From a virus, in IMG/VR virus record IMGVR_UViG_3300028831_000121, positions 1 to 62,364 of that record: DNA of 62,364 bases; one strand, given 5' to 3'. This document shows, one piece after another, positions 2,794 through 44,702 of the stretch (position 1 is its first letter; the number at the start of each line of letters is the position of its first letter). Made by a program: the position numbers and the translations under genes. A model generated the notes under the pieces. It was not told where the DNA came from. It worked only from the letters and a program-made list of their open reading frames with translations, and did no database searches.

Positions 2794-4275
2794 ATGCCAG
2801 AACAATCACTCACAGTTATTGACCGCTTCCGAAAAGCATTATCAGTGTTTCAGTCGAAGTCTGCCATTATCCCGCCCGACCTCGGCCCGGACAGTTATTC
2901 CCTCTCTCATTATCAACGGTTCAGTAATTGGGGGTGGGATCGCGCTTACAACCGGACAAACTATCGAAGTGAAGTAGGCGATCTCGATCTTAACTCCCTC
3001 GCAATGGCCGTGGTGAACTTCACGAGCATGCGTATTCCTGAAGCCAAGCCCACGGTAGTTACCTACAAGAAAGATGGCGACGAAGAAAAGGACTATCAGC
3101 ACCCAATGGCGCAGATGGTTCGCCGGCCTAATAAACATCATGTCTGGGCAAACTACGCGGCGGCATGTTCAATGTCCTGGTGGTTTTCAGGGAATGTATA
3201 TTTCCTCAAGGTTCGTGATGCGACAGGACAGGTTCAGGAGCTATGGCTTTTGCCGTACTTCATGGTGACACCTAGGTTTCCGAATGATCGCCGTACACCT
3301 GAAGTTCCACAGGACAAGAATAATGATCCCTTTCTCTCTCATTACGAGTATCGCGTGCCTGGAAAGGAAGCTGTTCTATATCCCGCAAGCGATATAGTTC
3401 ACATTAAACGTGGTCTTGATCTCAATAATCCAAGACTAGGATTAGGTGCGTTTGAGTCGCTTTATAAGGAATTGTACGGCGATGATCGGATGGCGCTATT
3501 CACAGGCTCAATCTTCGCCAACATGGGCATCCAGGTTCCGTTGATCTCGCCTAAAGACCAGACCGTAGATATAAGCGAGCCTAACGCGCTCGCAATGAAA
3601 GAGATGTGGATGGCGAAAACTACGGGGGCCAGAGCCGGTGAACCTGTAATAATGACTCAGCCTGTCAACGTGGAGAAGTTTGGCTTTAATCCTAGTGAGT
3701 TGGATATTTCCAATCTTCGCTTAGTGCCTGAATCGAGGGTATGCGCGGTCTGTCAAATCTCTCCCGCTGCATTGCAGTTGATGGTAGGGATACAGAATGG
3801 CACGTCTTACGCCTCAAGTGAGCAGGCAAGACAGCAAGGATATGAAGAAGTCATTATCCCTATTCAAAGAGCGTGGGAAGAAGAGTTTACATGGCAATTA
3901 CTACCCGAGTTTAAGCCTGAGAAGGGACAGGAGTTTGTTTTTGACACTACGCGAGTTCGGGTACTGCAAGAAGACCGTGACGCACTGTTTAAGCGCGAGT
4001 CTGAGGCGCTACGAGCTGGCGGTGTGACAATCAATGGTTATCTACAGAGTATTGGCAAGAAGCCTGTAGGCGAAGAAGGCGATGTTTACTTGATTCCGTC
4101 CACTTCAAACCCAATGACGTTGGAGAAGATTGCCGCACAAGCAAGTGATATGACACCTCCACCTGTACCGCCTCCGATTGATCCACAGTCATTAGCGAAA
4201 TTTGCTGAAATGGAAAGAATGTTTGAAGGGCTGGAAGAGCAGATGAAGGGGTTTATACCGACCGTCGATACTTAA
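2794..4275 (+). CDS. Portal protein
   Basis: 493 aa, abutting the terL stop (TAA-ATG). Size and position are typical of an HK97-type portal. No catalytic motif is expected for this family. Confidence 0.8.
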   Translation: MPEQSLTVIDRFRKALSVFQSKSAIIPPDLGPDSYSLSHYQRFSNWGWDRAYNRTNYRSEVGDLDLNSLAMAVVNFTSMRIPEAKPTVVTYKKDGDEEKDYQHPMAQMVRRPNKHHVWANYAAACSMSWWFSGNVYFLKVRDATGQVQELWLLPYFMVTPRFPNDRRTPEVPQDKNNDPFLSHYEYRVPGKEAVLYPASDIVHIKRGLDLNNPRLGLGAFESLYKELYGDDRMALFTGSIFANMGIQVPLISPKDQTVDISEPNALAMKEMWMAKTTGARAGEPVIMTQPVNVEKFGFNPSELDISNLRLVPESRVCAVCQISPAALQLMVGIQNGTSYASSEQARQQGYEEVIIPIQRAWEEEFTWQLLPEFKPEKGQEFVFDTTRVRVLQEDRDALFKRESEALRAGGVTINGYLQSIGKKPVGEEGDVYLIPSTSNPMTLEKIAAQASDMTPPPVPPPIDPQSLAKFAEMERMFEGLEEQMKGFIPTVDT

Positions 4276-4471
4276 ACCGCTGGTTAGGGTTAGTTAGGAG
4301 CGCAGATATGAATTCTGGGTCTTCACACGAGCGCAACTGCATTGATACTGGAGCGGCTTTCCCTAAGTCAACGGAATGCGCTGTAACCGTCCACCACAGC
4401 CCGTCAATTTCAATCTCGTCATGCGGGTTCAGGTTTACTGCGACCTCTTCATCTCCGATAACGGTTAGCAT
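4253..4471 (-). CDS. Hypothetical protein on the opposite strand in the portal/head-morphogenesis gap
   Basis: 72-aa ORF with protein-like composition (EIEIDGLWWTVTAHSVD). It fills a 214-nt gap in the + strand operon. No clear SD. Confidence 0.3.
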   Translation of the reverse strand: MLTVIGDEEVAVNLNPHDEIEIDGLWWTVTAHSVDLGKAAPVSMQLRSCEDPEFISALLTNPNQRFKYRRSV

Positions 4472-4489
4472 GATGCGAAGTATAGCCTA

Positions 4490-5389
4490 ATGAGCCTTCA
4501 AGAGAAAGTATTAAAGCTACGAATGGATGCCGCAATAGCGATGCGCCACGCTTCATTCTGGCAGAAGGCGATCACAGAACACGGCGAAGAGAAAGCGACG
4601 GCTTTCTACACTCACCTTGGCTTGAATCACTTAGAAAAGAAGTCCGTTGAATTCGACGGTCTAACCCTTCGCCGTGAACCGCGTGAGACAGAGAAGATCG
4701 CGGTCAAAGGTGTGCATCAAGCGCAGGAGTCAGGCAAGGAAGCAATAGGCAAGATACTATTAGAGCTTCGCGCTAGTTTAATTTCAGACGGTCTCAAAGG
4801 CATCAAGAAACTCGATCCGGCTACTTACCACGAACTAACCCTGTCAGTATCCCCAGAAAGTCGTACAAGCCTGCGAGACCGTTTGATTGCTGTTCACGCA
4901 CAGGGCCGCAAGTTAGTTGCTGCCGAACTAAATAAAACCAAAGAAGCTAAGCCTAAGCCTATAGCAGATGAGTTTGAACTACTTGACGATCTTGTTGACG
5001 TGACGGATTCACGAATTGCCAATGACGTGCAATCGAGAATCATTGCGGCCACAACACGTTATAGACTTCTCGGACTCGGTGATGCTGCTTTATGGAAAGC
5101 TGTTGAGGATGAGATTCGCATGGGGTCGGTGTCGTACGTTGACCGTGCGGCGACGGGATTAGCAAATCAGGTAATCAACATTGGACGAAGTGATGAAGCG
5201 AGCAGACTAGGCTTTGAGCGCGTCGAGTACAGCGCGTTGCTTGACCAGAACGTATGCGGCCCATGCGCGGCGGAAGATGGCAAAGAAGCCGACAACGAAG
5301 ATGATCTAGCCCCCGCACCGAATCCTGAATGTGAAGGCGGCGATTGGTGTAGATGTTTTCACGTCTTCATTGCAGAAGGGAATATGTAA
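4490..5389 (+). CDS. Head morphogenesis / minor capsid protein (SPP1 gp7 / Mu F-like)
   Basis: 299 aa following the portal. The C-terminal Cys motif (CGPCAA ... NPECEGGDWCRC) resembles the conserved ...NCRC end of gp7/F-type proteins. Confidence 0.6.
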   Translation: MSLQEKVLKLRMDAAIAMRHASFWQKAITEHGEEKATAFYTHLGLNHLEKKSVEFDGLTLRREPRETEKIAVKGVHQAQESGKEAIGKILLELRASLISDGLKGIKKLDPATYHELTLSVSPESRTSLRDRLIAVHAQGRKLVAAELNKTKEAKPKPIADEFELLDDLVDVTDSRIANDVQSRIIAATTRYRLLGLGDAALWKAVEDEIRMGSVSYVDRAATGLANQVINIGRSDEASRLGFERVEYSALLDQNVCGPCAAEDGKEADNEDDLAPAPNPECEGGDWCRCFHVFIAEGNM

Positions 5390-5577
5390 TGAGTTCACAT
5401 GGTCGTCGGCTGACAGTGATTGATGAGATCGAAATAATAATGCGCCAGCGGTTATGGTCTCCCTGGTATGAGCGATACGGCCCTGACTTTAGACATGAAA
5501 TGTGGCGCTACCCTATTGAACAAACGGAACCGCCGGAATTATTCGTGCCTGAAAAAGAAGCTGAAGGAAGTATGTAA
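5389..5577 (+). CDS. Hypothetical protein
   Basis: 62 aa from the ATG that overlaps the preceding TAA (TAATG). Trp/Arg-rich. Confidence 0.45.
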   Translation: MSSHGRRLTVIDEIEIIMRQRLWSPWYERYGPDFRHEMWRYPIEQTEPPELFVPEKEAEGSM

Positions 5578-5774
5578 TGACGCCTAACATACCTTTAACC
5601 CGCTCACCCAGAGCGGAGGACTTTGACGATGTACTAGCCTTAGCTCAGAAGGAATGCCACTGCACTTCTGAGATGAAAGACGATCTTAAGCATGGTGATG
5701 AAACAATCTGTAAGACGTGCGGGGCGCGACAGGTATTGAACGGGCTAACAACTTTAGCGGACACGCTCGAATGA
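5577..5774 (+). CDS. Hypothetical small Cys-containing protein
   Basis: 65 aa with TAATG start coupling. Contains CHC ... CKTCG. Confidence 0.45.
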   Translation: MTPNIPLTRSPRAEDFDDVLALAQKECHCTSEMKDDLKHGDETICKTCGARQVLNGLTTLADTLE

Positions 5775-6382
5775 ACCCTTTCGAGTTCTTTGAACGCCGT
5801 GTCTGTCTCACGCTTGGCCCTGACTGGCCTATAGCATGTGAAGAATTCGAGCGAGTAGGGCTTGAGAATGTATGGCGCTTCGATGCCCTTCCCGACATTG
5901 GCCCACACCAGAGTTTTAACAAGTCAACCCGACAGATACTTACCAACTTTCTAATCTCAGGAGCTAAAACACTTCTATTCCTTGAGGACGATGTTGTTTT
6001 CAAAGACTTATCGCATCTTGAGGTGGCGTTAAGTGAATTACCTAGCGACTGGGACATCATTTACCTGGGAGCAAACTTAGTTTGCTGGAACAATGGCGAA
6101 CCTCAACCTGAGCGACATTCAGAGCATTTATTTCGCGTAAAAGCTGCATGGACTACGCATGCAATCGGTTATAATAAGCGAGTGATCTCCTTCTTGTTAG
6201 CCAATCAGCCCGACATCAGCGCAATCATGTTTGATAACTGGCTTTCGTCTCAGCTACCGACATTGAATGCGTTTTGTGTCGCGCCGATGGTTGCGTACCA
6301 GAGGGCGCATCACAGCATGATATGGGATCGTTACGATGACTACACGCCGATATTTGAGGCGAGTGAGGAAAGGCTGAGATGA
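5771..6382 (+). CDS. Glycosyltransferase, family 25-like
   Basis: ATGA-coupled start (MNPFEFF). FLEDDVVF and DIIYLGAN match the GT25 (LPS beta-1,4-galactosyltransferase-type) pattern. Confidence 0.65.
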   Translation: MNPFEFFERRVCLTLGPDWPIACEEFERVGLENVWRFDALPDIGPHQSFNKSTRQILTNFLISGAKTLLFLEDDVVFKDLSHLEVALSELPSDWDIIYLGANLVCWNNGEPQPERHSEHLFRVKAAWTTHAIGYNKRVISFLLANQPDISAIMFDNWLSSQLPTLNAFCVAPMVAYQRAHHSMIWDRYDDYTPIFEASEERLR

Positions 6383-6531
6383 AGCCGTGTGATTATTTCC
6401 ATGAAGCGGTTATCTGCCGAGTGATAGCCATAGCTTATGAAAGTAAGGGGCTTATCGCAAATGCCGAATACTTTAAACAACGAGCTATTTACTTTGTCGC
6501 TAAAGGGCTTGAGGCACTAGCACTCGTGTGA
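6379..6531 (+). CDS. Hypothetical 50-aa protein (translationally coupled linker ORF)
   Basis: ATGA overlap at its start and GTGTGA overlap at its end. Below the cutoff of the ORF track. Confidence 0.3.
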   Translation: MKPCDYFHEAVICRVIAIAYESKGLIANAEYFKQRAIYFVAKGLEALALV

Positions 6532-7310
6532 TCACGTCACTTGTTACATTCTCCGATGAGACAATGCGCCGCTCGGCTGAACTGTGCATTGAGAGTGCGA
6601 AGCGGCACGGCGTTGACCGTGCTATGCGAGCTGTTCCAGCGGAGAAGTCTACGGAACGTGGTTACGGATTCTGGCGATGGAAACCGCAAATCATTCACTC
6701 ATTAATGAGCGGCGGCGATCCGTTCATTACGCTAAAAGACAATGACATTCTCATATACAGCGATGCCGGCGTTGAGTTCATCGACAACGTGAACTACATC
6801 ATCGACCGAATGGATCAAGACATCCTTCTATTCGGAAATATGTATGAGCACGCGCACTGGTGCAAAGCTGACATCGTTGCAGAGATAATGCCCGAATGGT
6901 GGCACCTCGGAATCCCGTTTAAGCAGGCCAACGGCGATGTAATTAAGTCTTTATCTCCGTGGGCCGCATTCGGTAAACAAGTTCAAGCCTCAGTAATCTT
7001 CTTCCGTGTCTCTGACTACACACGTAAGTTTGTAAAAGAATGGCTTGATTGGTGTCTCTTTGAAGGCGGACGATTGATAGACGACTCGCCAAGTAGAGCG
7101 CCGAACCATCCTGAGTTTAGAGAGAACCGACACGACCAAGCGATACTAACCACGATGGCGTATCGGGATGGCTTGAAATTACATTGGTGGCCCGCGAATT
7201 ACAACGACGGAGCGTTTACTTATCCGAGGGGTGATTATCCAGATGAAGGGTATCCGATACTATTTCACCACCACAGGAAACGTAACCACGAGTGGGAGAG
7301 CGCGGCGTGA
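6528..7310 (+). CDS. Putative nucleotide-diphospho-sugar (GT-A-like) transferase
   Basis: 260 aa with a GTG start. ILIYSDAGVEF (DXD-like position), FWRWKPQ and NRHDQAILT resemble nucleotide-sugar transferase motifs. Confidence 0.45.
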   Translation: MITSLVTFSDETMRRSAELCIESAKRHGVDRAMRAVPAEKSTERGYGFWRWKPQIIHSLMSGGDPFITLKDNDILIYSDAGVEFIDNVNYIIDRMDQDILLFGNMYEHAHWCKADIVAEIMPEWWHLGIPFKQANGDVIKSLSPWAAFGKQVQASVIFFRVSDYTRKFVKEWLDWCLFEGGRLIDDSPSRAPNHPEFRENRHDQAILTTMAYRDGLKLHWWPANYNDGAFTYPRGDYPDEGYPILFHHHRKRNHEWESAA

Positions 7311-7876
7311 TTCAAGCGATTACAAGAGAGCGATGGGAGCGGGCGCAAATAGCAGAGGCAGCGCTATTGGCCGGCTCACCTGATGCCGATCACTTCAAAC
7401 GGTCTTACGAATGCTACTTTGCCTACCTAGGAATGAGTTTCGATCAACAAGGCAAGGTCATCGTTGAGATTGGTTGCGCCGACTTCCCCGCTGTCTCGTA
7501 TTGCCAGAACGTGAAAGGGATCATTGTTGAGCCTTTAGTTACGCCTCAACTAAAACGCGTGGTTGATGAACATAGTCTCTACTGGATTCGCTGGGCCGTT
7601 GAGGAAATGACGCAGTTCCCGGAAGCTGACGAGGTTTGGCTTCTGAATGTAATGCAGCATGTTATCGACCCAGAACTATTTGTTTCACGATGTAAGCAGA
7701 TGGCCCTAGTAATCCGTTTCTTTGAACCGATAGACTATGAGACCAGTGAGTACCATCCCCACACTTTTACGATTGACGACTTTAGCCGTTGGTTTGGAAG
7801 AGTGTCGAGATATTTAGGCGGGAGCAGAGAGGGATTTCATCAGGCAGATTGTGCGTATGGGACGTGGCGACGGTGA
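7307..7876 (+). CDS. Class I SAM-dependent methyltransferase
   Basis: VIVEIGCADFP (motif I-like) and LLNVMQHVIDPELF (motif typical of Methyltransf_11/23). GTGA-coupled start. Confidence 0.6.
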   Translation: MIQAITRERWERAQIAEAALLAGSPDADHFKRSYECYFAYLGMSFDQQGKVIVEIGCADFPAVSYCQNVKGIIVEPLVTPQLKRVVDEHSLYWIRWAVEEMTQFPEADEVWLLNVMQHVIDPELFVSRCKQMALVIRFFEPIDYETSEYHPHTFTIDDFSRWFGRVSRYLGGSREGFHQADCAYGTWRR

Positions 7877-8643
7877 TTGTCACCTTCAACGCGTTAGGGC
7901 GCTACGGACGGCTGTGCAACGGGGCTTACCAGATTGCCTCAACTATCGGGATCGCGCGCAAGAATGGGTTTGACTTCGCCTTTCCGTACTGGATGAATCA
8001 CGATCATAAAAATCGCTTTGGCAGCACAGAAGACATTGATATTCAAAAACACTTCGCTAATCCCCTGCCCTTGTATGACGGCCCTGAGCTGCCCGATAGA
8101 TTCATCGACTGGGGATTTCACGATGTTGTTCTAACTGAGTCCGTCAGCCTGTCAGGACACATGCAGTCCACTCGATACTTCGAGCACTCGATTAACGAAG
8201 TCAGGCACTATTTCAGAATGAAAGACGAACCCGCACAGAACGACTACGTAGCCATTCACTACCGAGCTGGCGACTACTCGACGGGCGCGGGCTACCATCC
8301 GCGTATGACAATGGACTACTACGGCCCTGCGACGAGCCAATTCCCAGGCGAGAAGTTCCTGGTCTTCAGTGATGACATCCCGGAAGCTAAAAATCTATTT
8401 GGAAGTTCTGTGGAATACTCTGAAGGGCAGGACTACATTCAGGATTTTAGGCTGATGAAGACTTGCAAGAGTTTCATAATCGGCAATTCGAGTTTTAGTG
8501 CGTTCGCTGCCGTGTTAGGCGAACATCCCGAGAAAAAGGTAATCGCTCCCCGTCCCTGGTTTGGGCCAAGCTACACACAGATCACCGGGGAAGACATTTA
8601 CGAACCTGATTGGACAGTAATTGATTACCGGAAAGCAGCATGA
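7873..8643 (+). CDS. Glycosyltransferase family 11-like (alpha-1,2-fucosyltransferase type)
   Basis: VAIHYRAGDY, FLVFSDDIPEAK and FIIGNSSFSAFAAVL match the three GT11 signature blocks. The GTG start overlaps the preceding TGA. Confidence 0.7.
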   Translation: MIVTFNALGRYGRLCNGAYQIASTIGIARKNGFDFAFPYWMNHDHKNRFGSTEDIDIQKHFANPLPLYDGPELPDRFIDWGFHDVVLTESVSLSGHMQSTRYFEHSINEVRHYFRMKDEPAQNDYVAIHYRAGDYSTGAGYHPRMTMDYYGPATSQFPGEKFLVFSDDIPEAKNLFGSSVEYSEGQDYIQDFRLMKTCKSFIIGNSSFSAFAAVLGEHPEKKVIAPRPWFGPSYTQITGEDIYEPDWTVIDYRKAA

Positions 8644-8928
8644 GTGGATTCAACTGGATGAAGGAATCGGGTTCTGTCTTGACTGTGACGCGTCAAGCGA
8701 TTTTGGGCACGAGGTAGATTGTATTGACCGTTCCCCTGAAACAAGAGAACCGCCCCAAGCCGTTACGGATCGTAAAGGCCAGCGAACTACCTCCACAACG
8801 TAACAGCACGGAGCATGTTAAGGTTGAACTCGGAAAGATACGCCGCGAGCTATTAACGCTCGCTGTTCGCATTGAAAAGGTAAGTCAGAGCCAAGAGACA
8901 GCCTAGCTATAAAGCTACCGGACTTCTA

Positions 8929-8979
8929 CCGCTCACTGTTTCGGTTACAGAACCGAGATGGTGGGCGTTTCGTCTTTTT
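8929..8979 (+). terminator. Hairpin plus T-run after the glycosyltransferase run
   Basis: TCGGTT-ACAG-AACCGA core stem with outer pairing, followed by GTTTCGTCTTTTTGG. Confidence 0.4.
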
Positions 8980-8993
8980 GGGGCTAGAAATAC

Positions 8994-10076
8994 ATGACCA
9001 TAGAACGCAAATTCATAGACCTGAAGTCGCTGACAATGAGTGATGAGGGGCCAGGAACCATCTCTGGGTACCGTTCAGTCTTTTCCGAGATTGATGAAGG
9101 GGGCGACCTGGTTGTTAAAGGTTTCTTTGCTGATTCCATTCCTGAATATTCCGAATCTGGTTTTTCCGCGCATAGTCATGATTGGTCGTTCAAGGAGGCC
9201 GTTGGTTTTCCTATTGAAGCTAAAGAGGATGATCACGGGTTTCATGTTGTGTCTCAGTTTCATTCCACCTCGGACGCTCAAGACATCCGCACTAAATGTA
9301 AGGAGCGAATGCAGGCTGGTAAGACGGTGGGCTTCTCCTTTGGGTATTCAGTAAGCGATAAAGCGTACATTGAGGCTAAGGACTACAAAGAGCAACTGCC
9401 CTTATTCGTAAAACCCGAACGCCTCCAAGCAAATCTCCTTAAAGCGCAAAAGTTTGATCGCATCCGCATCTTGAAAAAAGGTGAGGTGATCGAAGACTCC
9501 ATTGTTACCGCGCCGATGAACAAACTGGCAGTAGCAACGGGCGTTAAGTCCGAAGCAAAGGGAATGCTCGCTGAGGAGATGGCTGCAACTACCCCATCCA
9601 CATGGGAAGTGCAATCAGCCTTCTCTCGCGTCATTCGCAAGATTGCTGAGGGCGCCAAGAATTCTGACATCACTGGCGAGTTTGATTGGAAAGCTAAAGC
9701 AACTCTTGCCTGTTCTGAGTTGGGATCGGAAATGTCGCCGCTGGTAGTTAGTCAGATACAAGACTTTTTAGACGGAACAGATGACGAGTTTTACCTCAAA
9801 GGCATCTCGGTATCCGAATCCTTTGAGTCCTTCGATGATGTGGTAGCCGCATTAGAGAAGCAAACCCACAACATGCAACGCAACCACGCGGCCCGAGTTA
9901 AAGAGGGCCGAATTCTCTCAACTTCCAACCGGAACAAAGTTCAAGCGGCATACGACGCATTAGGCGAGTTACTAGCTGCTTCTGAACCCCCTGTGAAAGA
10001 GAAAGAGATCGACGTGACTGCGTTAAGGACTCAATCAGAACGCATCAGGCACGACCTTATAAGCCTGATGCAATAG
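8994..10076 (+). CDS. Prohead protease (HK97 / S78 type) with C-terminal scaffold-like extension
   Basis: ISGYRSVFSEIDEGGDLVVKGFF and TVGFSFGYSV match the HK97 protease pattern. The C-terminal ~150 aa are helical and charged. Confidence 0.75.
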   Translation: MTIERKFIDLKSLTMSDEGPGTISGYRSVFSEIDEGGDLVVKGFFADSIPEYSESGFSAHSHDWSFKEAVGFPIEAKEDDHGFHVVSQFHSTSDAQDIRTKCKERMQAGKTVGFSFGYSVSDKAYIEAKDYKEQLPLFVKPERLQANLLKAQKFDRIRILKKGEVIEDSIVTAPMNKLAVATGVKSEAKGMLAEEMAATTPSTWEVQSAFSRVIRKIAEGAKNSDITGEFDWKAKATLACSELGSEMSPLVVSQIQDFLDGTDDEFYLKGISVSESFESFDDVVAALEKQTHNMQRNHAARVKEGRILSTSNRNKVQAAYDALGELLAASEPPVKEKEIDVTALRTQSERIRHDLISLMQ

Positions 10077-10087
10077 GGAGAACTACG

Positions 10088-11407
10088 ATGCCTTTTAAGG
10101 AAGACGCTAAACAGCTAAAAGCAAAGCTGGATGAGCAGAAAAAGATTTTCGATGAGCAGGACAAGCGAGCTAAAGACGCGAAAGCTGCCGGCCAGTCTGA
10201 CGACGACGCGTTTAAGGCCGCTGAGCCCACAGCAGATGAGGCCGTGCAAGCCAAGAAACTTGCAGAAGAGATTGAGGAGCTTCATACGAAATGCACTGAG
10301 TCCAAAGAGTACGAAGACATGCGTACCAAGAACGACTCGCTGCGAACCGAACTAACCACGCCAATAAATCGCCCGTCTTATGGCGACGATCCCCGTCATG
10401 TGGTTAAACATGAAACTGTGGGCCAGCAATTTACGGAATCGCCCGAGTTTAAGAATTGGCTGGCTGACATTGCTCCTGGTGGCGGACAGATTGCCGAGGG
10501 CGTGAAGATCCACTCCCCGGCGGTTGAAACTAAAGCCTTGGTGCTGACAAGTGCTACATCAGGTGGGTCTCTTGTTCGACGCGACTACTCCGCGCTCGTT
10601 GACTTCCCGCTTCGTCAACTAACAATTCGAGACGTTGTTAGTGTCGGCCGGACTGGCTCGAACCTTGTTGAGTACGTCCGCGTGACTGCAAAGACTCGTG
10701 GGGCCACGGTGGTTCCTGAAGCCACGGCAACGACTTCAACGGGGTATTCCAATGCCGCTAAGCCGGAAGCTGGTCTGACGTTCGCAATCGTCCAGGAAGG
10801 TGTGAAGACAATCGCCGTCTGGATGCCGATTACTCGTCAGATTCTTGCCGACGCGCCACAGCTCGAATCAATGATCGACAACTTCCTGAACGAAGACCTT
10901 GAGTTGACATTGGAAGACCAGATGATCAACGGCACGGGCGGCGCGAACTTCACTGGCCTTGAAAACACCACGGGACTAACCCCGCAGGCTTTTACCACAG
11001 ACATGCTGACGACTACTCGTAAAGCGCGAACGGCGGCAATGATTGTGGGAAGAGAGCGGTCAACCGGGTTTTTGATGAACCCCTACGACTGGGAAGCTCT
11101 TGACCTGACTAAAGACGCGGAGAACCGTTACTACTTTGGTGGGCCATTGAGCCTCGGAACGAAGATGCTCTGGGGGCTTCCTGTGATTGAGTCTGAAGTC
11201 ATTCCCCAAGGTACGGCTTACACCGGAAACCTGAAGCGAATGATGTTGTGGGATCGTGAACGTCCGACTACACGGATCACGGACTCGCACTCAGACTTCT
11301 TCACACATAACTTGCTGGCAATCTTGACAGAGTTGAGAGCCGCCTTCGGCGTGCTTCGTCCAGCGGCCATCGTGAAGATTGACCTTTTTGCAGGAGCGAA
11401 TTCGTAA
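10088..11407 (+). CDS. Major capsid protein (HK97 fold) with N-terminal delta/scaffold domain
   Basis: 439 aa directly after the protease. It has a ~100-aa Lys/Glu/Asp coiled-coil N-terminus followed by a capsid-like body. Confidence 0.85.
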   Translation: MPFKEDAKQLKAKLDEQKKIFDEQDKRAKDAKAAGQSDDDAFKAAEPTADEAVQAKKLAEEIEELHTKCTESKEYEDMRTKNDSLRTELTTPINRPSYGDDPRHVVKHETVGQQFTESPEFKNWLADIAPGGGQIAEGVKIHSPAVETKALVLTSATSGGSLVRRDYSALVDFPLRQLTIRDVVSVGRTGSNLVEYVRVTAKTRGATVVPEATATTSTGYSNAAKPEAGLTFAIVQEGVKTIAVWMPITRQILADAPQLESMIDNFLNEDLELTLEDQMINGTGGANFTGLENTTGLTPQAFTTDMLTTTRKARTAAMIVGRERSTGFLMNPYDWEALDLTKDAENRYYFGGPLSLGTKMLWGLPVIESEVIPQGTAYTGNLKRMMLWDRERPTTRITDSHSDFFTHNLLAILTELRAAFGVLRPAAIVKIDLFAGANS

Positions 11408-11490
11408 CGGCGCACACTGTTGCGATAACCCCGGCGGCTTTCCTTCATGGTCTTTAGCGGATACTGGGGAGAGCCGCCGATTCACTAAAT

Positions 11491-12891
11491 ATGAAGGTTT
11501 TCTTCTACGCTCATATGTGGCCGCCTATACACATGGCCGGCTCTGAGACCACCGCCCACGCGGCCATGCGCGAGATGGCATTACGCGGCCACGACGTAAC
11601 TGTAGCGGCGGATCGTACTCCTGAGTCGTACGAGTATGAGGGTGTCACCGTTCTTCATGTGCCCAGAAATGGCGTCCACGAACGGATTAGAGAGATCGCT
11701 AAAGACGCGGACGTGTTAATTACGCATCTCGACTGCACAAGTCTCGCAATGACGTTAGCAATCGATCTCAACAAACCTCTTGTACATTTTGTCCACAACC
11801 ACGCACAACTGAATTACTGGCATGTTGATCCTAACGCTTTCGGCAAAGCTGCTCTTGTTGTTTTCAATACTCATTGGATTAAGAAAGAACAGAAGTTCAA
11901 AGGCGAGCCGTGGCCTGGGCCATCAATAGTTATCCATCCAATCGTTGAGCCTGAGAAATATAAATGCAAGCCCGGAACCAAGATCACTTTGTGCAATCCC
12001 ACTGAAGGTAAAGGGGTGCATACGATCTACAAACTGGCTGAACAGATGCCTGACTATGAGTTCCTTGTTGTGGAAGGGATTTACGGTGAGCAGATAGCGC
12101 CTCCGAACCTACCTGATGAGTGGGCCGCCAAACACCCTAACATTGAGTTTATGAAGAATGATCCTGACTTCAGGAACGTGCTGAGGAAAACCAAAGTTCT
12201 GTTGATGCCGTCAGGTTATGAGAGTTATGGACGGTGCGCTGTTGAGGCTGCGTGTGCTGGCGTCCCTTCGATTGTTCATCCGACTCAAGGGCTATGGGAA
12301 GCATTGGGAGACGGTCGGGAGTACCCGGCGGATGCTGAGTATGGCTTAGACGGCGTTGCGGTGATTGCGCGAGAAGTCTTTGATGAACAAATGTTCACAG
12401 GCGGAATGGTCAACGGTGCGGGAATCTTCTGTCTGCGTGACGATATTCCGTCATGGAAAGCGCAGATCGAAAGACTGTATTCAGATGAAGTTTATTATCG
12501 TAGTCGTTCGGATGCAGCGTTGAAATTAGCAAACAGTTTTGACCCTGAAGGTGAGTTTGATCGGCTGGAGGAAGCATTGTTACTGACAAGTGAACAATGG
12601 AATAAACGTGATGAGGTAAAGCAGATGGCAATGTGGACTAACAATACAGGCGAAGTAATCTACGAAACCACTGACGGGAAGTTAGTGATCGGCAAGGGCG
12701 GAAGAATTCCGGCGGATGCTAAGACCGTTGCGGTAGGCAGAGGCGGCGAGATCCCGGAAGAGTTAGCACGGGCCAATGGGTTCTTACCGCCACTTGAAGA
12801 AAAAGCGATTGAAGCACCGCAAGAGAACAAGGCAATGGAAGCGCCCCAACAGACTAAACAGCGGAAGACGCGAGTTAAGAAAACCGCGTGA
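11491..12891 (+). CDS. Glycosyltransferase family 4 (GT-B, group 1) with basic C-terminal extension
   Basis: LLMPSGYESYGRCAVEAACAGVPSIV carries the EX7E motif. The N-terminus (GSETTAHAAMREMALRGHDV) is typical of GT4. The C-terminus has an AIEAPQEN/AMEAPQQT duplication. Confidence 0.8.
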   Translation: MKVFFYAHMWPPIHMAGSETTAHAAMREMALRGHDVTVAADRTPESYEYEGVTVLHVPRNGVHERIREIAKDADVLITHLDCTSLAMTLAIDLNKPLVHFVHNHAQLNYWHVDPNAFGKAALVVFNTHWIKKEQKFKGEPWPGPSIVIHPIVEPEKYKCKPGTKITLCNPTEGKGVHTIYKLAEQMPDYEFLVVEGIYGEQIAPPNLPDEWAAKHPNIEFMKNDPDFRNVLRKTKVLLMPSGYESYGRCAVEAACAGVPSIVHPTQGLWEALGDGREYPADAEYGLDGVAVIAREVFDEQMFTGGMVNGAGIFCLRDDIPSWKAQIERLYSDEVYYRSRSDAALKLANSFDPEGEFDRLEEALLLTSEQWNKRDEVKQMAMWTNNTGEVIYETTDGKLVIGKGGRIPADAKTVAVGRGGEIPEELARANGFLPPLEEKAIEAPQENKAMEAPQQTKQRKTRVKKTA

Positions 12892-12902
12892 AAGGATAAC
12901 TG

Positions 12903-13346
12903 ATGGCATCCTTTGTTAAATACAATCAGTTTGTCGAGGACTTGGCCCACGGCGTCCACGATCTAAAGACAGGCACATCACATGTCCTTAAGGTGCTGTT
13001 ATCTAACACTGCTCCGAATGTTTCGACTCATGCTGTGAGGGCTGATACAACTGAACTTTCCACGGCCAACGGTTATACATCAGGGGGGATTTCAGTTGGC
13101 ACGCTCACGGGCGCTCAGGCCTCGGGCACATTCAAAGTGTCGGGCGGCACTGATCCGGTGTGGACAGCATCAGGCGGTTCGATGGCGACCTTCCGCTATG
13201 CAATTCTTTATAACGACACACCAACTTCGCCCGCTGATCCTTTGATTGGGTATTGGGATTATGGGGCAGGCGGAGTGACGCTTGCGGTCGGTGAAACCTT
13301 CACAGTCGATCTCGATCAGACCAACGGCATTTTAACTATCACCTAG
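12903..13346 (+). CDS. Hypothetical virion-module protein
   Basis: 147 aa, Gly/Thr/Ser-rich, lying between the capsid-adjacent GT4 and the repeat protein. Confidence 0.5.
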   Translation: MASFVKYNQFVEDLAHGVHDLKTGTSHVLKVLLSNTAPNVSTHAVRADTTELSTANGYTSGGISVGTLTGAQASGTFKVSGGTDPVWTASGGSMATFRYAILYNDTPTSPADPLIGYWDYGAGGVTLAVGETFTVDLDQTNGILTIT

Positions 13347-13358
13347 GGAAGTGTCTGT

Positions 13359-14828
13359 GTGCCAGCCCTTTCAACCCTTTTACCGACTGGCGATTCTGCG
13401 GTAGGTTCATGGACTACCGATTCAGGTGGCACGTCAAATCTTTGGCAAAAGATTGAAGAAGGCATTGCCGGGGCCACTGATACCACTGATTACATCAAAG
13501 GCCCGAATGACGTAGATGCCTCAGACTATAAATTCGCTCTTACTGATACTCCCGCAAGTTTCAATTCAATCAAATCTCTAAGCTGGCAAGTGCGCTTCGC
13601 CTTGTCCGGGACTCCCCCAGCGTCGAATAAAGACACTTATGGACTTTCGATCAGAATTGTCAATGGTGCCACGATCTTGGCGGCTGCTGATTCAAGCGGC
13701 ACGTTTCAAGTAATAGTTTCCACTACAACAATGTCAACGTCGTTTTCTAACTCAGCAGTGACGGCGTTTACTTACGTTAATACAAGTGCGTCTAAAGCAA
13801 CCTGGGACGGCGCGATTGTTGAGCTGCGACAAACCTATACTCAGACGGCATCAAAAGACGCCCACGCGGTTGAGGTGTCCGCAATAGAATTCACGGGCAC
13901 ATACAACGCGATTCTCACAGCTTCAGCCGCGTCGTTCACCGAGACGGGCATTACTGCAACGCTTAAGGCCGCACGGGTAATTACAGCGACGGTGGGCGCG
14001 TACACAGAGACGGGTAGTACCGCAACGCTTTCAAAGGGCGTGCGCTTAACCTCAGCAACAGGGAGCTTTAATGAAACCGGAAACGCAGCAACATTAAAGA
14101 CGTCACGAACGCTTAGCGCGAGTGCGGGTAGCTTTACCGAAACAGGCATCTCGGCGGCGCTCAAATCCGCACGATTACTGACTGCGGGCCTGGGAACATT
14201 TAATGAGACAGGCAACAACGCAACTTTATCTAAGGGTTTTAACTTCTCTGTTACATCCGGCAGTGTTGCTGCCAGTGCTAACGCTGCTTCTCTGAAAGCC
14301 ACACGACTCCTCTCTGCGTCCGTTAGTAGTTCTATTGCGACAGGCAATGACGCCGCACTTCTCGCGGCGCGTTCCCTACGGGCTGTGTTAGGCACGCTCA
14401 CGCAGACGGGTAACGATGCAAACTTAATAAGCACTCGACGTACGAGCGCGGGGTCTGGATCAGTCGCGATAGACGGAAGCCCTGCCCCACTAATCGCCGT
14501 TCGCGCCTTGTCTGCTTCGTTAGGCGTGTTTCTTCAATCTGGCTTGGATGCGACCCTTCTACCCGCCCGAAAGTTGATCACGGTAACGCAGGGTTATGCA
14601 GTTACGGTCAACGCTGCAAGCCTAAGCATTGGAGTGGCGAGTAGTCCGCACTTAAACGCTCAAACAGGAGTATTTAGTGTTGTAGGAAACAATGACTGGA
14701 TGGCGCACCGTGCGTCACTGGCGTTTGTATCAACAGTTGACGGAGGTAGACCGTCTATCACTGTAGAAGCAGAACACACCAGGATTAGTGTAACCGTCAA
14801 ACCAGGAGCAAAAAGAATCAGCGCGTGA
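13359..14828 (+). CDS. Structural-module protein with 11 tandem 22-aa repeats
   Basis: 489 aa with a GTG start. A 185-aa N-terminal domain is followed by 11 gap-free 22-residue units (e.g. LSASAGSFTETGISAALKSARL). Confidence 0.6.
   Translation: MPALSTLLPTGDSAVGSWTTDSGGTSNLWQKIEEGIAGATDTTDYIKGPNDVDASDYKFALTDTPASFNSIKSLSWQVRFALSGTPPASNKDTYGLSIRIVNGATILAAADSSGTFQVIVSTTTMSTSFSNSAVTAFTYVNTSASKATWDGAIVELRQTYTQTASKDAHAVEVSAIEFTGTYNAILTASAASFTETGITATLKAARVITATVGAYTETGSTATLSKGVRLTSATGSFNETGNAATLKTSRTLSASAGSFTETGISAALKSARLLTAGLGTFNETGNNATLSKGFNFSVTSGSVAASANAASLKATRLLSASVSSSIATGNDAALLAARSLRAVLGTLTQTGNDANLISTRRTSAGSGSVAIDGSPAPLIAVRALSASLGVFLQSGLDATLLPARKLITVTQGYAVTVNAASLSIGVASSPHLNAQTGVFSVVGNNDWMAHRASLAFVSTVDGGRPSITVEAEHTRISVTVKPGAKRISA
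13914..14639 (+). repeat. 11 x 66-bp in-frame tandem repeat
   Basis: Residues 186-427 of the 13359-14828 product. The period is exactly 22 aa with no indels. Confidence 0.85.
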
Positions 14829-15385
14829 ATATAGCCACTTACACAAAAGAGCCGAACGACATAACGCCTTATGAAATTGACTGGGAGGCGTGGCTGGCGG
14901 GACGCACGCTCTCGACTTCTACGTTCGCGGTTACCCCTGACGGTCTCACTATTGATGATGATTCAAACACCAGCACGTTAGCCGTGGTCTGGCTGAGCGG
15001 TGGTAGTTGGGGAGATGTTTACGAAGTAACAAACCATGTTATTGCGAGTGACGGAGCAGAGGAAGATCGTTCTATCACGATCAAGATTCAGCAGGAGCAA
15101 CGATATTGTACGACCGCAGAAGTCAGACGCCGCGCGCAACAGATGACAGATAACAACATGCCTGACGCGGAACTGGAAGCACTTATTGAACAAGCAAGTA
15201 GAATATTCGATCAGGCATGCGGGGTTTCACCTGGATATTTCAATCCTCCGGCGATTCCGGTTGAAACGTCAAGAACCTTCTACGGCAATGGAAGCAGCTA
15301 TCTAAGAGTCGATCCGTACGTTGCTGGCACTCTGACGTTGCCAGAAGATCTATTCACCGAAGATGAAGAAGAGTTGATTATTTGA
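14825..15385 (+). CDS. Fusion of a ~95-aa beta-rich domain and the N-terminal half of a gp6-type head-tail adaptor
   Basis: TTAEVRRRAQQ...AELEALIEQASRIFDQACG...RTFYGNGSSYLRVDPYV matches the first half of the Phage_connect_1 pattern. The ORF stops right after FTEDEEELII. Confidence 0.5.
   Translation: MNIATYTKEPNDITPYEIDWEAWLAGRTLSTSTFAVTPDGLTIDDDSNTSTLAVVWLSGGSWGDVYEVTNHVIASDGAEEDRSITIKIQQEQRYCTTAEVRRRAQQMTDNNMPDAELEALIEQASRIFDQACGVSPGYFNPPAIPVETSRTFYGNGSSYLRVDPYVAGTLTLPEDLFTEDEEELII
15353..15371 (+). repeat. Left copy of the junction direct repeat (TTCACCGAAGATGAAGAAG)
   Basis: Matches TACACCGAACGAGAAGG at 17566-17582. Both encode (F/Y)TE(D/R)E. Confidence 0.6.
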
Positions 15386-15386
15386 T

Positions 15387-17129
15387 ATGGGCAAACGAAT
15401 CTCAGAACTTCCAGAGGTAACAAGTCCGGCCAGCACGGATGTGTTGCCCATTGTTTCAGGCGGAAAGACCAAGAAGGTTAAAGTCTCGAACCTTGCCGCT
15501 TCTGCCTCTGGCTCGCTTCAGGCCGCAAATAATCTTTCCGATTTAGACGATGCTGGCGAGGCTAGAACCAACTTGGGGCTTGGTTCCGCTGCTACCACCG
15601 CGTCAAGTGCTTACGATACCGCAGGCGCCGCAAGCGCAGCTCAAGCAGCATCCCAGCCGCTTGATTCCGATCTAACCGCTATCTCTGCTCTGACTCCAAC
15701 GAATGACAATCTGCTTCAGCGCAAGGGCGGGGTATGGGTTGACAGAACTCCCGCACAAGTAAAAACCGATCTCGCTTTAGTTAAGGCTGATGTTGGCCTT
15801 GGGTCTGCGGACAATACTTCCGACGCAGCCAAGCCAGTCTCAACCGCGCAACAGACAGCACTCGATCTGAAGGTAGATAAAAACGGTGCAATCACTGGCG
15901 CAACAAAAACCAAAGTCACTTACGACGCGAAAGGGTTAGTTACCGCTGGGGCCGATGCCACTACCGCCGATATTGCTGACAGTTCAAATAAACGATATGT
16001 GACCGACGCGCAGTTGACGGTGATCGGGAATACTTCAGGAACGAATACAGGCGATCAAAACCTTGCTTCCATTCTAGCTTCGTCCATCTCTGACGGCGAT
16101 ACGACTCATGCGCCAGATGGAAACTCGGTGTTCGATGCACTGGCGTTGAAAGAAAACGCAGTAAATAAATCCTCTGACGTAGCGACGGACATTGCGAGCA
16201 CCACAAAATATCCTGCTGTTAAGGCAATTACTGATTGGGTGATTTCGCTATTTGCCCCGAAGGGCGCAATCGGATCGTCTGGATTAACACAAGCAACAAA
16301 CAAATTACTCGGTAGGGGTACGGCTTCAACGGGAGCGGTCGAAGAAATCACGCTTGGTACAAATCTGAGTCTAAGCGGTACGACACTGAATGCGACAGGC
16401 GGTGGTATAGGCGGCTCAACCGGATCAACTGATAATCGCATCCTGCGAGCGGACGGCGCAGGCGGCGCGACGGTACAAAACGCGGCACTTGGAATTGATG
16501 ATTCGGCCAGCCTCGTTGACACAAACGGCAATGAGCTAATCAAGACCACGGCCACGGCGTCGGCAGTCAATGAGATAACGATTGCAAATGCGGCGACAGG
16601 GAACAGTCCGACGATCTCCGCAACAGGCGGGGATTCCAATATTGGAATTTCAATAATCAGCAAGGGAACTGGTCAGATATTAGCAAATAGCGGTTCATCT
16701 GCTGCCCCCACCTTTAGTTTTACTGACAATCCTACTACGGGTATTTACAACAGTGCTGGAAACCTTGTCTTTATGGGCCAAGGTTCCATTCAGGCGTATT
16801 TCTCACCGTCAGGCACATTTAATTTATATCAAGGTGGAAATCTACAACTAAACGCACCAGCACAAGTTACATGGTTTACAGATACCGCTCTTGTTCGCAA
16901 TGCCGCAGGAGTAGTGGAAATTAACAACGGCACAGCCGGTAATTGGGGGGTCTTACTTCTACGTGGCACGACACTATCAACTCTTACAAGCGTGATCACC
17001 TCACCCGTTCTCGGAATGAGAGCAACTATCACGGATTCAACCACTGTTACTTATCGGGCAACTATCACAGGAGGCGGGTCAAATGTAGTTCCCGCATTCT
17101 ATGACGGATCAAACTGGATTGTGAGCTAA
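15387..17129 (+). CDS. Fibre protein (tail-fibre-like repeats; neck/head or tail fibre)
   Basis: The N-terminus (ISELPEVTSPASTDVLPIVSGGKTKKVKVSNL), NLSDLDDAGEARTNLGLGSAA and KVTYDAKGLVTAG are classic phage fibre motifs. Confidence 0.7.
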   Translation: MGKRISELPEVTSPASTDVLPIVSGGKTKKVKVSNLAASASGSLQAANNLSDLDDAGEARTNLGLGSAATTASSAYDTAGAASAAQAASQPLDSDLTAISALTPTNDNLLQRKGGVWVDRTPAQVKTDLALVKADVGLGSADNTSDAAKPVSTAQQTALDLKVDKNGAITGATKTKVTYDAKGLVTAGADATTADIADSSNKRYVTDAQLTVIGNTSGTNTGDQNLASILASSISDGDTTHAPDGNSVFDALALKENAVNKSSDVATDIASTTKYPAVKAITDWVISLFAPKGAIGSSGLTQATNKLLGRGTASTGAVEEITLGTNLSLSGTTLNATGGGIGGSTGSTDNRILRADGAGGATVQNAALGIDDSASLVDTNGNELIKTTATASAVNEITIANAATGNSPTISATGGDSNIGISIISKGTGQILANSGSSAAPTFSFTDNPTTGIYNSAGNLVFMGQGSIQAYFSPSGTFNLYQGGNLQLNAPAQVTWFTDTALVRNAAGVVEINNGTAGNWGVLLLRGTTLSTLTSVITSPVLGMRATITDSTTVTYRATITGGGSNVVPAFYDGSNWIVS

Positions 17130-18982: not shown

Positions 18983-19597
18983 ATGGCCGGTACTAGCGAC
19001 AACTTCAGTTCGACAACTGTAGCGATAGGCCCAGGGAAATTATACGCAGGGCTTGCAATACCAGGGGCCGGAGGCCGGTTGATTCTTGCCAGTGATGGCA
19101 CTCCTGACGCAACGCAAAACCCCTCAGCCCTACACCTCGGCTACACCGAAGGCGGCACGGAATGGAAGCAGGGGCACACGCTAACCGAGTTCACGCCTGA
19201 TGAGTCCAACTACCCGGTTATCAGTCGCGTTACGGGGGAGAGTGCTTCAATTTCCGGCTCGCTCTGGCAGTCGTTTGATTTTGACATCAACGCGATTCTT
19301 AACCCCCTTGACGTCAGGAGCAACTTACCCGGCACGCAGGGAGCTACATTCGGCGGTATAAACACCTTTAGCTACAACTCTGTTGCGGTGATCTTTCCGC
19401 TTGAAGGAATAACTCCAACGATCTACGGAGTGTTCCATCTTTACAAGGCGGTGAACGACGCAGAGGCGGCGGCCAAGATAACGAGCAAAGCAGTTGGCGC
19501 GACCCCATTTTCATTTAAGGGCCATGCGATTCCTACAAGAGCGGCGGGAGATCAGGTTGGTCGTAAATTTAGGCAGACCACAGGAGCAACATCCTAA
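18983..19597 (+). CDS. Major tail (tube) protein
   Basis: 204 aa with a strong SD (AAGGAG). It sits upstream of the chaperone and tape measure genes. Confidence 0.6.
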   Translation: MAGTSDNFSSTTVAIGPGKLYAGLAIPGAGGRLILASDGTPDATQNPSALHLGYTEGGTEWKQGHTLTEFTPDESNYPVISRVTGESASISGSLWQSFDFDINAILNPLDVRSNLPGTQGATFGGINTFSYNSVAVIFPLEGITPTIYGVFHLYKAVNDAEAAAKITSKAVGATPFSFKGHAIPTRAAGDQVGRKFRQTTGATS

Positions 19598-44040: not shown

Positions 44041-44702
44041 TGCCAGCAGTCAAAATCAAAACACGAACGTGCAGAGGCTGCGGCAAGGTTGAGACGGGTA
44101 TCAGCCGCAACCTTGTTAATCAATTCTGTAACAAAGAGTGTTGGCGCGTGAACATGGCGGGCAAGTATCTACGGCGCGGTAAAGAGTATGAGTGCGGGCA
44201 ATGCGGGAAAGTCTTTTACCGCAGGCCGGGGATGATACGAGGCCCACAATCGTTCTGCTCGATGTCTTGTCGAATTACATTCAAAGATAGCGGCGTCTTA
44301 GTGCATTGCCCGACGTGCAATGTTGAGTTCAGGCAAAACTTTACACGAACCACCTACTGCTCTGTTCGCTGCTCTAAGATCGGGCCGCTAAACCCGCACT
44401 GGAACGAAAACGCAACTGGCAGAGTGCGTGGGTGGTCGCGCATTTGGCGGCGGGACGTGTTCAGCCGCGATGACTATACGTGCCAATCCTGCGGGCAGCG
44501 TGGCGGCAGACTTCATCCGCACCATAAGGACGGTTTTCATTGGGCAGTTGGTCGTCGGGCAGATGTCAGTAACGGAGTAACGCTTTGTGTTCGCTGCCAT
44601 ACCGCTTTTCATCGCGCATACGGCAGACGCAACAACACTGAGGCTCAATTTAACGAGTGGATTAAAGCAAAGGAAGAAAAGGAAAAACCCCAAGCCGCAT
44701 GA
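44040..44702 (+). CDS. HNH endonuclease with N-terminal zinc ribbons
   Basis: The HNH core is CQSCGQRGGRLHPHHKDG...NGVTLCVRCHTAFH. Confidence 0.75.
   Translation: MPAVKIKTRTCRGCGKVETGISRNLVNQFCNKECWRVNMAGKYLRRGKEYECGQCGKVFYRRPGMIRGPQSFCSMSCRITFKDSGVLVHCPTCNVEFRQNFTRTTYCSVRCSKIGPLNPHWNENATGRVRGWSRIWRRDVFSRDDYTCQSCGQRGGRLHPHHKDGFHWAVGRRADVSNGVTLCVRCHTAFHRAYGRRNNTEAQFNEWIKAKEEKEKPQAA

Follow-up and report, generated by a model that had tools for sequence, protein, structure and literature searches.

We analysed a stretch of viral DNA of 62,364 nucleotides, IMG/VR virus record IMGVR_UViG_3300028831_000121, which is called the window here in its whole length. Lying among its head genes is a cassette predicted to encode five sugar-modifying enzymes, four glycosyltransferases and a methyltransferase, and on balance we think it probable that this is a late, cytoplasmic, phage-encoded system for glycan assembly that decorates the phage's own virion proteins. 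A first-pass annotation of the same DNA had proposed the virion as the substrate of glycosylation. That proposal gains support from the co-inheritance of the enzymes, their position in the head module, their translational coupling, the solubility of the proteins and, in related phages, the presence of a guanosine diphosphate (GDP)-L-fucose synthase (Fcl) gene beside the GT11 gene; the acceptors it named had to be revised. Sequence comparisons suggest that the capsid and tail tube proteins are more likely acceptors than the fibre proteins.

The five enzymes of the cassette

The cassette genes, a small open reading frame (ORF) between them and the hairpin that separates most of them from the protease gene are:

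5771..6382 (+): GT-A fold, GT25-like glycosyltransferase, 203 amino acids (aa), with an EDD motif at residues 72-74
6379..6531 (+): 50-aa ORF, overlapping its neighbours on both sides (ATGA, GTGA)
6528..7310 (+): GT-A fold glycosyltransferase nearest to retaining GT6/GT8 enzymes, 260 aa, from AlphaFold2 (AF2) modelling and Foldseek
7307..7876 (+): class I S-adenosylmethionine (SAM)-dependent methyltransferase-like protein, 189 aa, from a family profile
7873..8643 (+): GT11 (alpha-1,2-fucosyltransferase family) enzyme, 256 aa, PF01531 at E 4.6e-12
8930..8977 (+): hairpin and T-run, with a 17-bp stem at 8930-8967 and then TTTCGTCTTTTT
11491..12891 (+): GT4 (GT-B) glycosyltransferase carrying a conserved ~170-aa extension at its C-terminus, from Pfam

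Searches with Pfam profiles placed the GT11 and GT4 proteins above the family thresholds, and the other three window proteins had no Pfam or NCBIfam match. Structure prediction followed by Foldseek gave GT-A folds for the proteins encoded at 5771-6382 and 6528-7310. Single-sequence searches of the Protein Data Bank (PDB), made for GT4 and for each of the three proteins that lack annotation, returned nothing significant. The five-enzyme inventory of the first-pass annotation stands, with confidence that differs between its members; membership of the first protein in GT25 at the level of sequence does not, and the broad GT-A label of the second could be narrowed only as far as a GT6/GT8-like fold. 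The peptide motifs on which that inventory was built are all present in the translations, and most of them are invariant among homologues.

The GT11 protein scored 46.2 bits against PF01531 (cut-off 23.9) in a match that covers only positions 162-297 of the 298-position profile, and it matched the glycosyltransferase family phrog_2644 over its full length (E 4e-42). Hallmarks of GT11 enzymes are an HxRxGDY-type motif and a C-terminal S-x-F-S motif, and the translation contains IHYRAGDY and GNSSFSAFAA. Its closest sequence relatives, 31-36% identical, are the products of GT11 genes from cyanomyoviruses (for example S-SM2, S-SCSM1 and Bellamy). Its sugar donor is probably GDP-L-fucose, with indirect support from the GDP-L-fucose synthase gene that adjoins GT11 in 17 related loci.

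The GT4 protein exceeded the cut-offs of both Glyco_transf_4 (37.5 against 28.5) and Glycos_transf_1 (34.4 against 26.4), matched phrog_26352 (E 3e-60) and has the EX7E motif E-SYGRCAV-E. Its only tblastn match in 50,697 GenBank phage records (E 1e-5) was gp20 of Streptomyces phage TurkishDelight, a glycosyltransferase gene located between the capsid and major tail genes of that phage.

For the GT25-like protein we found no Pfam or NCBIfam match at E up to 0.1, and none of the 429 homologue clusters (90% identity) of its family has a Pfam domain. The AF2 model, built on a 28-sequence alignment, had a predicted local distance difference test (pLDDT) score of 93, and the top eight PDB neighbours found by Foldseek were all human COLGALT1, a GT25 enzyme (E 1.8e-10 to 1e-9, template modelling (TM) score 0.63-0.71; best match E 1.8e-10, TM 0.67). 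Residues E72 and D74 are invariant in the family alignment. The family profile also ranked COLGALT1 first in the PDB, at an E-value of only 0.13, and showed no significant sequence similarity to bona fide cyanophage GT25 (hhalign E 0.26). Judged from the model, the right label for this protein is a GT25-like GT-A fold, and membership in GT25 did not emerge from sequence. The only GenBank phage records with a similar protein were LR756501.1 / LR756503.1, two uncultured megaphage genomes of 735 kb (387878-388444, 29% identity).

The protein encoded at 6528-7310 belongs to a family of 1034 homologue clusters (90% identity). It had no Pfam match, its single sequence had no significant match in the PDB, and its family profile gave spurious PDB matches only. 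Its AF2 model (pLDDT 76) resembled the GT6 enzymes ABO/alpha-3-GalT and the GT8 enzyme XXYLT1 (E ~2e-6, TM ~0.5). Matches in BFVD included glycosyltransferases of cyanophages and giant viruses, the best being an unnamed viral protein of 845 aa (E 3e-13). The invariant motif of the family is Y-S-D-A-G-x-E, not the classical DxD. The model points clearly to a GT-A fold, most like that of retaining GT6/GT8 enzymes.

The methyltransferase-like protein itself had no Pfam match and matched phrog_3603 (E 1e-15). A profile of 32 family sequences matched class I SAM methyltransferases in the PDB over the motif I region (E 1e-4 to 4e-4), and four of the 32 homologues matched Methyltransf_23 or Methyltransf_11. 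This profile support leads us to call it class I SAM methyltransferase-like. Its family comprises 136 clusters (90% identity), and homologues occur in a subset of cassettes only.

Position in the head module and co-inheritance in related phages

The head genes around the cassette are:

1558-2793: large terminase
2794-4275: portal
4490..5389 (+): MuF-like head morphogenesis gene, the upstream border of the cassette, with a weak Phage_Mu_F match (E 3e-4) below the Pfam cut-off
8994..10076 (+): prohead protease, Peptidase_S78 at E 5.7e-11
10088..11407 (+): HK97-fold major capsid protein, Phage_capsid at E 2e-42

Seven start/stop overlaps had been claimed along this run, and every one was found in the sequence: TAATG at 5389 and 5577, ATGA at 5771-5774 and 6379-6382, and GTGA at 6528-6531, 7307-7310 and 7873-7876. 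The hairpin and T-run described between the cassette and the protease gene are present and strong, with a folding energy of -28 kcal/mol and a z-score of -3.8 against shuffled sequences. The GT4 gene follows the capsid gene directly, as had been noted, starting 83 nt beyond it. The placement away from integrase genes was likewise confirmed, since the large serine recombinase lies at 52.4 kb (52390-53919; Resolvase and Recombinase domains), ~40 kb from the cassette. Small Cys-rich ORFs border the cassette, a 65-aa zinc-ribbon-like one before the GT25-like gene (5577-5774) and a 60-aa one after the GT11 gene (8621-8803); related phages have different small Cys-rich ORFs downstream of GT11 (cluster c18). 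The slot at 6379..6531 is often occupied in relatives by a small, poorly conserved ORF.

We collected 72 IMG/VR loci via the GT25-like family and 32 via GT4, and clustered their ORFs. By sequence similarity, the same enzyme set recurs in about 100 metagenomic phage loci, in two arrangements. In type A, that of the window, the order is portal, MuF, [GT25-like, GT-A, variable middle, GT11], protease, capsid, GT4, and MuF-like homologues stand at the same place in 28 type A loci. In type B, it is portal, MuF, protease, capsid, [GT25-like, GT-A, variable middle, GT11, GT4], followed by a gp6-like head-tail connector and tail genes. When partner counts were restricted to loci with enough downstream sequence, the GT25-like gene of type B was accompanied by GT-A in 17/18 loci, GT11 in 17/18, and GT4 and a methyltransferase in 18/18 each; in type A the partners were GT-A (12/12), GT11 (11/12) and a methyltransferase (11/12). 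A second scan anchored on GT4 gave the same picture of co-occurrence. Cassette proteins of the two types are 30-51% identical, whereas their terminase, portal, MuF, protease and capsid genes gave no tblastn match at all to one another. The cassette is therefore a module common to two lineages whose head genes have no detectable similarity.

Within the loci, cassette proteins are as conserved as core head proteins, and the capsid gene invariably adjoins a cassette member. Median gaps are -4 nt between GT25-like and GT-A, -4 nt between GT11 and GT4, and -8 nt between GT4 and the connector. Genes in the variable middle encode FkbM-family and class I methyltransferases, GDP-L-fucose synthase, a 154-aa protein and GIY-YIG/HNH homing endonucleases; in 17 related loci the GDP-L-fucose synthase gene adjoins GT11 (NCBIfam E 9.5e-137). 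Reduced cassettes retain only GT25-like and GT4, which are possibly the minimal functional core. Other phage groups have just this pair, ~1.4 kb apart (L107, L109-L112, L070 and L071). Endonucleases with GIY-YIG/NUMOD3 or HNH/NUMOD4 domains lie in or at the edges of several cassettes (L004, L007, L009, L012, L017, L020, L029, L046, L052-L054, L059 and L060), and such homing endonucleases may help the cassette to pass between phage lineages.

A much larger phage, L002 (ENA AH_forest_Scaff2016406, 107.9 kb), has the beginning of the same cassette at 2071-8653. Two genes upstream, inside its head module, encode a protein of 847 aa that has ART-PolyVal and ADP-ribosyltransferase toxin domains and another of 1163 aa that has pyridine-nucleotide-disulfide oxidoreductase domains.

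Among 185,579 bacterial and archaeal species genomes, the GT25-like family had a single match, on a 6.9-kb contig of a Cyclobacteriaceae metagenome-assembled genome. Thus, the cassette does not belong to the common surface-glycan loci of bacteria or prophages. We did not take Cyclobacteriaceae as the host, one such contig being too weak a basis. Megablast of 4000-13500 against the 50,697 phage records matched nothing, and our literature searches found no description of such a cassette.

The window is a circular or terminally redundant assembly representing a complete genome of ~62.2 kb, because its two ends are identical over 141 bp (1-141 = 62224-62364). Its gene content is siphovirus-like. 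Neck, fibre and tail genes sit 3' of the capsid gene, and the right half holds the replication genes (43-51 kb), a DNA N6/N4 methylase, the serine recombinase, which suggests that the phage may be temperate, and a lysozyme. An HNH gene lies outside the cassette at 44040-44702. The G+C content is ~0.50 along the whole genome, and we rejected a recent foreign origin of the cassette since its value (0.49) equals that of the genome (0.50). The host is probably not an actinobacterium, because the G+C content is 50% and the tail and lysis genes, which include an Rcc01698/J-like tail protein and a T4-type lysozyme, are of Gram-negative type.

No cassette protein has a membrane segment (top Kyte-Doolittle 19-residue score <=1.43), and no Gtr-, Wzx- or Wzy-type proteins, ligase or priming phosphotransferase appeared among the ORFs scanned against Pfam. 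Conversion of the Gtr type was rejected, as membrane partners were not found in these scans. These observations bear on a broader alternative, which we regard as unlikely, that the enzymes remodel the envelope of the infected cell or lysogen by modifying lipopolysaccharide (LPS) or lipooligosaccharide core, O-antigen, capsule, exopolysaccharide or S-layer. Such remodelling could mask receptors, for superinfection exclusion or to spare progeny from adsorbing to debris, a purpose that we likewise consider unlikely. The families themselves fit it: GT11, GT25 and GT4 are typical of LPS and polysaccharide synthesis, PF01755 is described as 'LPS biosynthesis protein', and the literature reads similar GT11/GT25 clusters of cyanomyoviruses as cell-surface modification. 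The serine recombinase would suit it as well, and the hairpin 3' of the cassette could delimit a separate transcription unit. An envelope-directed pathway accounts less readily for soluble enzymes that come with no flippase, polymerase, ligase, Gtr partner or priming phosphotransferase in these scans. Nor does it account for genes that share the strand of the head genes, are translationally coupled to them and lie ~40 kb from the recombinase, or for two lineages with no detectable similarity between their head genes that both keep the cassette in the head module beside the capsid gene. The near absence of the cassette from bacterial genomes also argues against it.

It is far less probable still, indeed very improbable, that the glycans are placed on modified bases of the phage DNA for evasion of restriction. 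Phage glycosyltransferases are classically DNA-modifying, the glucosyl-hmC of T-even phages being an example, DNA glycans built by several glycosyltransferases are reported in the literature, and the window encodes a DNA methylase. Against this, no deoxycytidylate (dCMP) or deoxyuridylate (dUMP) hydroxymethylase, thymidylate-synthase-like or hypermodification gene was present in the ~75 ORFs scanned against Pfam, several of which are unannotated, and DNA glycosylation was rejected on that ground. In addition, the cassette lies in the late head operon, apart from the replication genes, and the GDP-L-fucose synthase and sugar O-methyltransferases of its relatives fit the synthesis of a glycoconjugate better than that of DNA. 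Because the cassette proteins are soluble, their genes share a strand with the structural genes and are coupled to them, and no hypermodification gene was seen in these ORFs, the acceptor would be a cytoplasmic one that is co-produced with the head proteins.

The capsid, the tail tube and other possible acceptors

Two further features of the window concern the acceptors:

18983..19597 (+): putative major tail (tube) protein with the C-terminus ...TTGATS, from gene order
12903..17129 (+): accessory module of a 147-aa protein, a 22-aa-repeat protein, a Gp77-like adaptor and a 580-aa fibre

The major capsid protein of the window ends ...FAGANS. A G-x-N-S C-terminus was present in 15/15 complete type A capsid proteins of the first locus set and in 21/21 capsid matches of a second, overlapping set. 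The gene at 18983-19597 precedes chaperone-like ORFs and a 954-aa ORF of tape-measure size. All 12 homologues of its product end in G-x(0-2)-S (12/12; others being ...NAGAQS, ...SGTS and ...AVGS); these relatives were obtained from the GT4-anchored loci, an earlier pattern scan having found none. Such C-termini occur in 1.6% of 1287 other ORFs of the loci and in 4/89 window ORFs, among which are the capsid and putative tail tube proteins. Mycobacteriophage Che8 offers a parallel, since reports on that phage describe its capsid and tail tube proteins as glycosylated at their C-termini (PMC12619734, PMC12363180, PMC13313380). In Che8 these proteins, like those of the window, have a Ser-ending C-terminal tail (...NKTGS and ...YSDGS). 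As the most specific evidence we obtained, the shared G-x-x-Ser tails suggest that in the type A lineage it is the capsid and tail tube proteins that serve as substrates. We also sought a cassette-specific insertion or Ser/Thr-rich loop in the capsid protein and found residues 205-225 to be Ser/Thr-enriched, inconsistently.

Six phages with a capsid protein homologous to that of the window were compared, a small and anecdotal sample. In Jojo24, Leona and PhiBP82.1 the tails are absent, and no glycosyltransferase is annotated in the structural region fetched. Raymond7 has ...SSGS on the capsid protein only, and the two proteins of Pseudomonas phage phi_D3 end ...TAS and ...KSA. Escherichia phage ECP1 (NC_049926.1; L119, L121), whose capsid protein is 37% identical to that of the window, has ...SSGS on the capsid and ...ASGS on the tail protein, and two genes annotated as glycosyltransferases, one with a weak GT2 match, lie just upstream of its terminase gene. 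ECP1 may offer a workable system in which to study virion glycosylation beyond the actinobacteriophages. In phi_D3 (PP944329.1, L120), the head-closure and neck genes have a class I methyltransferase gene between them (8490-9107; Methyltransf_23, E 3e-10), and a nearby 134-aa gene annotated 'sialyltransferase' has no Pfam match.

The Ser/Thr-rich 147-aa protein, 22-aa-repeat protein and fibre, which the first-pass annotation had put forward as acceptors, turned out to be products of accessory genes. These genes are missing in almost all cassette-bearing relatives, so their products cannot be the conserved substrate. No homologue of the 580-aa fibre was detected in any locus. Outside the window, the 147-aa and repeat proteins were seen in L044 and L078 alone, and they may be additional substrates. 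They travel as a pair, located between GT-A and GT11 in L044 (~13400-15700) and directly after GT4 in L078 (15644-17564). Similarity was found between the 147-aa protein and a minor tail protein of mycobacteriophage MooMoo. For the protein encoded at 13359-14828, the 22-aa periodicity is borne out by the amino-acid sequence (identity 0.36 at a lag of 22, ~0.1 at other lags), with no tandem repeat detected in the DNA, and the repeats contain N-E-T and N-A-T sequons. A Gp77 fibre-tail adaptor domain is present in 14825-15385 (PF23148, E 4e-23), and directly after it comes the Gly/Ala/Ser/Thr-rich fibre (15387-17129). In several type A relatives a different insert of ~6 kb lies between GT4 and the homologue of 14825-15385, indicating that the region between GT4 and the adaptor is a variable fibre slot.

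The tails and the gene order also bear on a further possibility, distinctly improbable in our judgement, that the enzymes act on some other cytoplasmic target, either a protein of the host (flagellin, pilin or one that serves in defence, for instance) or a glycoconjugate or metabolite in solution, and that the head module is merely a tolerated site. PF20706, 'GT4 in conflict systems', scored above its cut-off on the GT4 protein, and the homing endonucleases in many cassettes mark a region of active insertion and exchange. The PF20706 match is confined to residues 218-278, the generic C-terminal motif of GT-B enzymes, however, and a tolerated site does not predict the same gene set at two positions of the head module, -4 nt coupling to structural genes or shared C-terminal tails on capsid and tail proteins.

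Several points weigh against decoration of the virion. The usual acceptors of GT11, GT25 and GT4 enzymes are LPS, oligosaccharides or small molecules. The serine recombinase leaves lysogeny and conversion possible, and the T-run of the hairpin, if it is an efficient terminator, could uncouple expression of the cassette from that of the protease and capsid genes. The GT4 protein had no detectable similarity to mycobacteriophage proteins (tblastn, E 1e-5), the glycosyltransferase genes of Che8 and Corndog included. The tail tube protein at 18983-19597 is putative, gene order being the sole basis for the name. In type B phages no common C-terminal tail was found on the capsid and presumed tail proteins, so the acceptor motif is lineage-specific at best. 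Finally, no isolate phage among the 50,697 GenBank phage records has the cassette; the lineage is uncultured.

With virion decoration as the preferred reading, the following course may be proposed. The cassette, which is translationally coupled to the head genes, would be transcribed together with them late in infection, as capsid and tail subunits accumulate. GT4, a retaining GT-B enzyme, or the GT25-like enzyme would prime a Ser/Thr hydroxyl on subunits that are assembling or assembled; these two are the best candidates for priming because they form the minimal cassette in reduced relatives. The GT25-like enzyme may add a beta-hexose, GT11 an alpha-1,2-L-fucose from GDP-fucose (host-supplied here, with phage Fcl boosting the supply in relatives) and the GT6/GT8-like enzyme an alpha-linked hexose. 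The methyltransferase would O-methylate, or cap, a sugar hydroxyl of the resulting short hetero-oligosaccharide. In the type A lineage, the likeliest sites of attachment would be the C-terminal G-x-x-Ser tails, ...AGANS of the capsid and ...TGATS of the putative tail tube. We infer the acceptor, the order of steps, the sugars beyond a probable fucose and the benefit, which may be shielding or stability of the particle.

Comparison with known systems and implications

The closest functional precedent is virion glycosylation in actinobacteriophages. In Che8, Corndog and Myrna it is reported to be carried out by phage glycosyltransferases and, in some relatives, also to involve a methyltransferase (Freeman et al. 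2023, Cell Host Microbe, as cited in PMC12619734, PMC12363180 and PMC13313380). The nearest homologue of the window GT4 in an isolate, the Streptomyces phage glycosyltransferase, is located between capsid and tail genes in keeping with this precedent. Unlike those systems, the window has a larger and different set (GT25-like, GT6/8-like, GT11, GT4 and a methyltransferase), its GT4, GT25-like and GT-A proteins have no detected sequence similarity to Che8 gp110 or Corndog gp38, and its cassette is inside the head operon and coupled to it.

Glycosylation of the capsid of chlorovirus PBCV-1 is cytoplasmic, and the glycan contains fucose. Soluble viral glycosyltransferases and class I SAM sugar methyltransferases (A064R, A061L, A111/114R) build a methylated glycan on its major capsid protein; nucleotide-sugar enzymes, among them GDP-mannose dehydratase, are also encoded by chloroviruses (PMC9614988). 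This machinery may be viewed as the closest mechanistic analogue, given the soluble transferases and SAM methyltransferase of the window and the GDP-L-fucose synthase of its relatives. The relationship is at the level of folds only, and PBCV-1 differs in being a giant virus of eukaryotes whose glycans are N-linked and whose enzymes have several domains.

In cyanomyoviruses, the GT11 gene adjoins GT25 and nucleotide-sugar epimerase genes; those clusters are in auxiliary-gene islands of T4-like genomes, whereas that of the window is in the head operon. Serotype-converting Gtr prophages share with the window the phage-borne glycosyltransferases and a genome that is possibly temperate. They differ in having GtrA/B/C-type membrane proteins, not found here, and the window cassette lies away from integrase and immunity genes and is coupled to late structural genes.

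The ABH-like O-antigen of E. coli O86 is made by a beta-Gal transferase, a GT11 alpha-1,2-fucosyltransferase and a GT6 alpha-1,3-Gal transferase, and GT6 enzymes use a Fuc-alpha-1,2-Gal acceptor. The window may combine corresponding classes, with a GT11 enzyme, a putative beta-hexosyl GT-A and a putative retaining GT-A of GT6-like fold. Assembly of ABH-like O-antigens takes place on undecaprenyl phosphate and depends on a membrane-borne flippase, polymerase and ligase, none of which our scans found in the window. A resemblance to the assembly of ABH-type antigens in bacteria and animals is speculation by analogy.

The window cassette differs from the actinobacteriophage, chlorovirus and cyanomyovirus systems in its enzyme set, its linkage to the capsid gene and its probable host. 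For annotation, three of its five enzymes account for more than 1,000 database clusters called 'hypothetical protein'. A fuller picture, which is possible and which we hold tentatively, is that virion glycosylation extends well beyond actinobacteriophages. Siphoviruses of soil and fresh water, a large group (hundreds of homologue clusters) that is still uncultured, would exchange a mobile cassette of 2-5 enzymes, often accompanied by homing endonucleases and always placed next to the capsid gene. They would build a methylated, fucosylated oligosaccharide, possibly ABH-like, on the capsid and tail tube, with a Ser-tail tag in the lineage of the window.

Demonstrations of particle glycosylation are known so far only from a few mycobacteriophages, where the glycans blunt recognition by antibodies. 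If virion decoration is correct, particle glycosylation would be widespread in environmental phages of non-actinobacterial hosts, with a different and larger toolkit carried as an exchangeable, capsid-linked module. This would matter for the stability of phages in soil and water and for their adsorption and transport there, and also for the design and immunogenicity of therapeutic phages. The C-terminal tail motif is a concrete and cheaply testable prediction: on the fuller picture given above, the shared G-x-x-Ser tail, a pattern also seen in ECP1, would be an acceptor tag that can be read from sequence and could be used to predict which phages are glycosylated.

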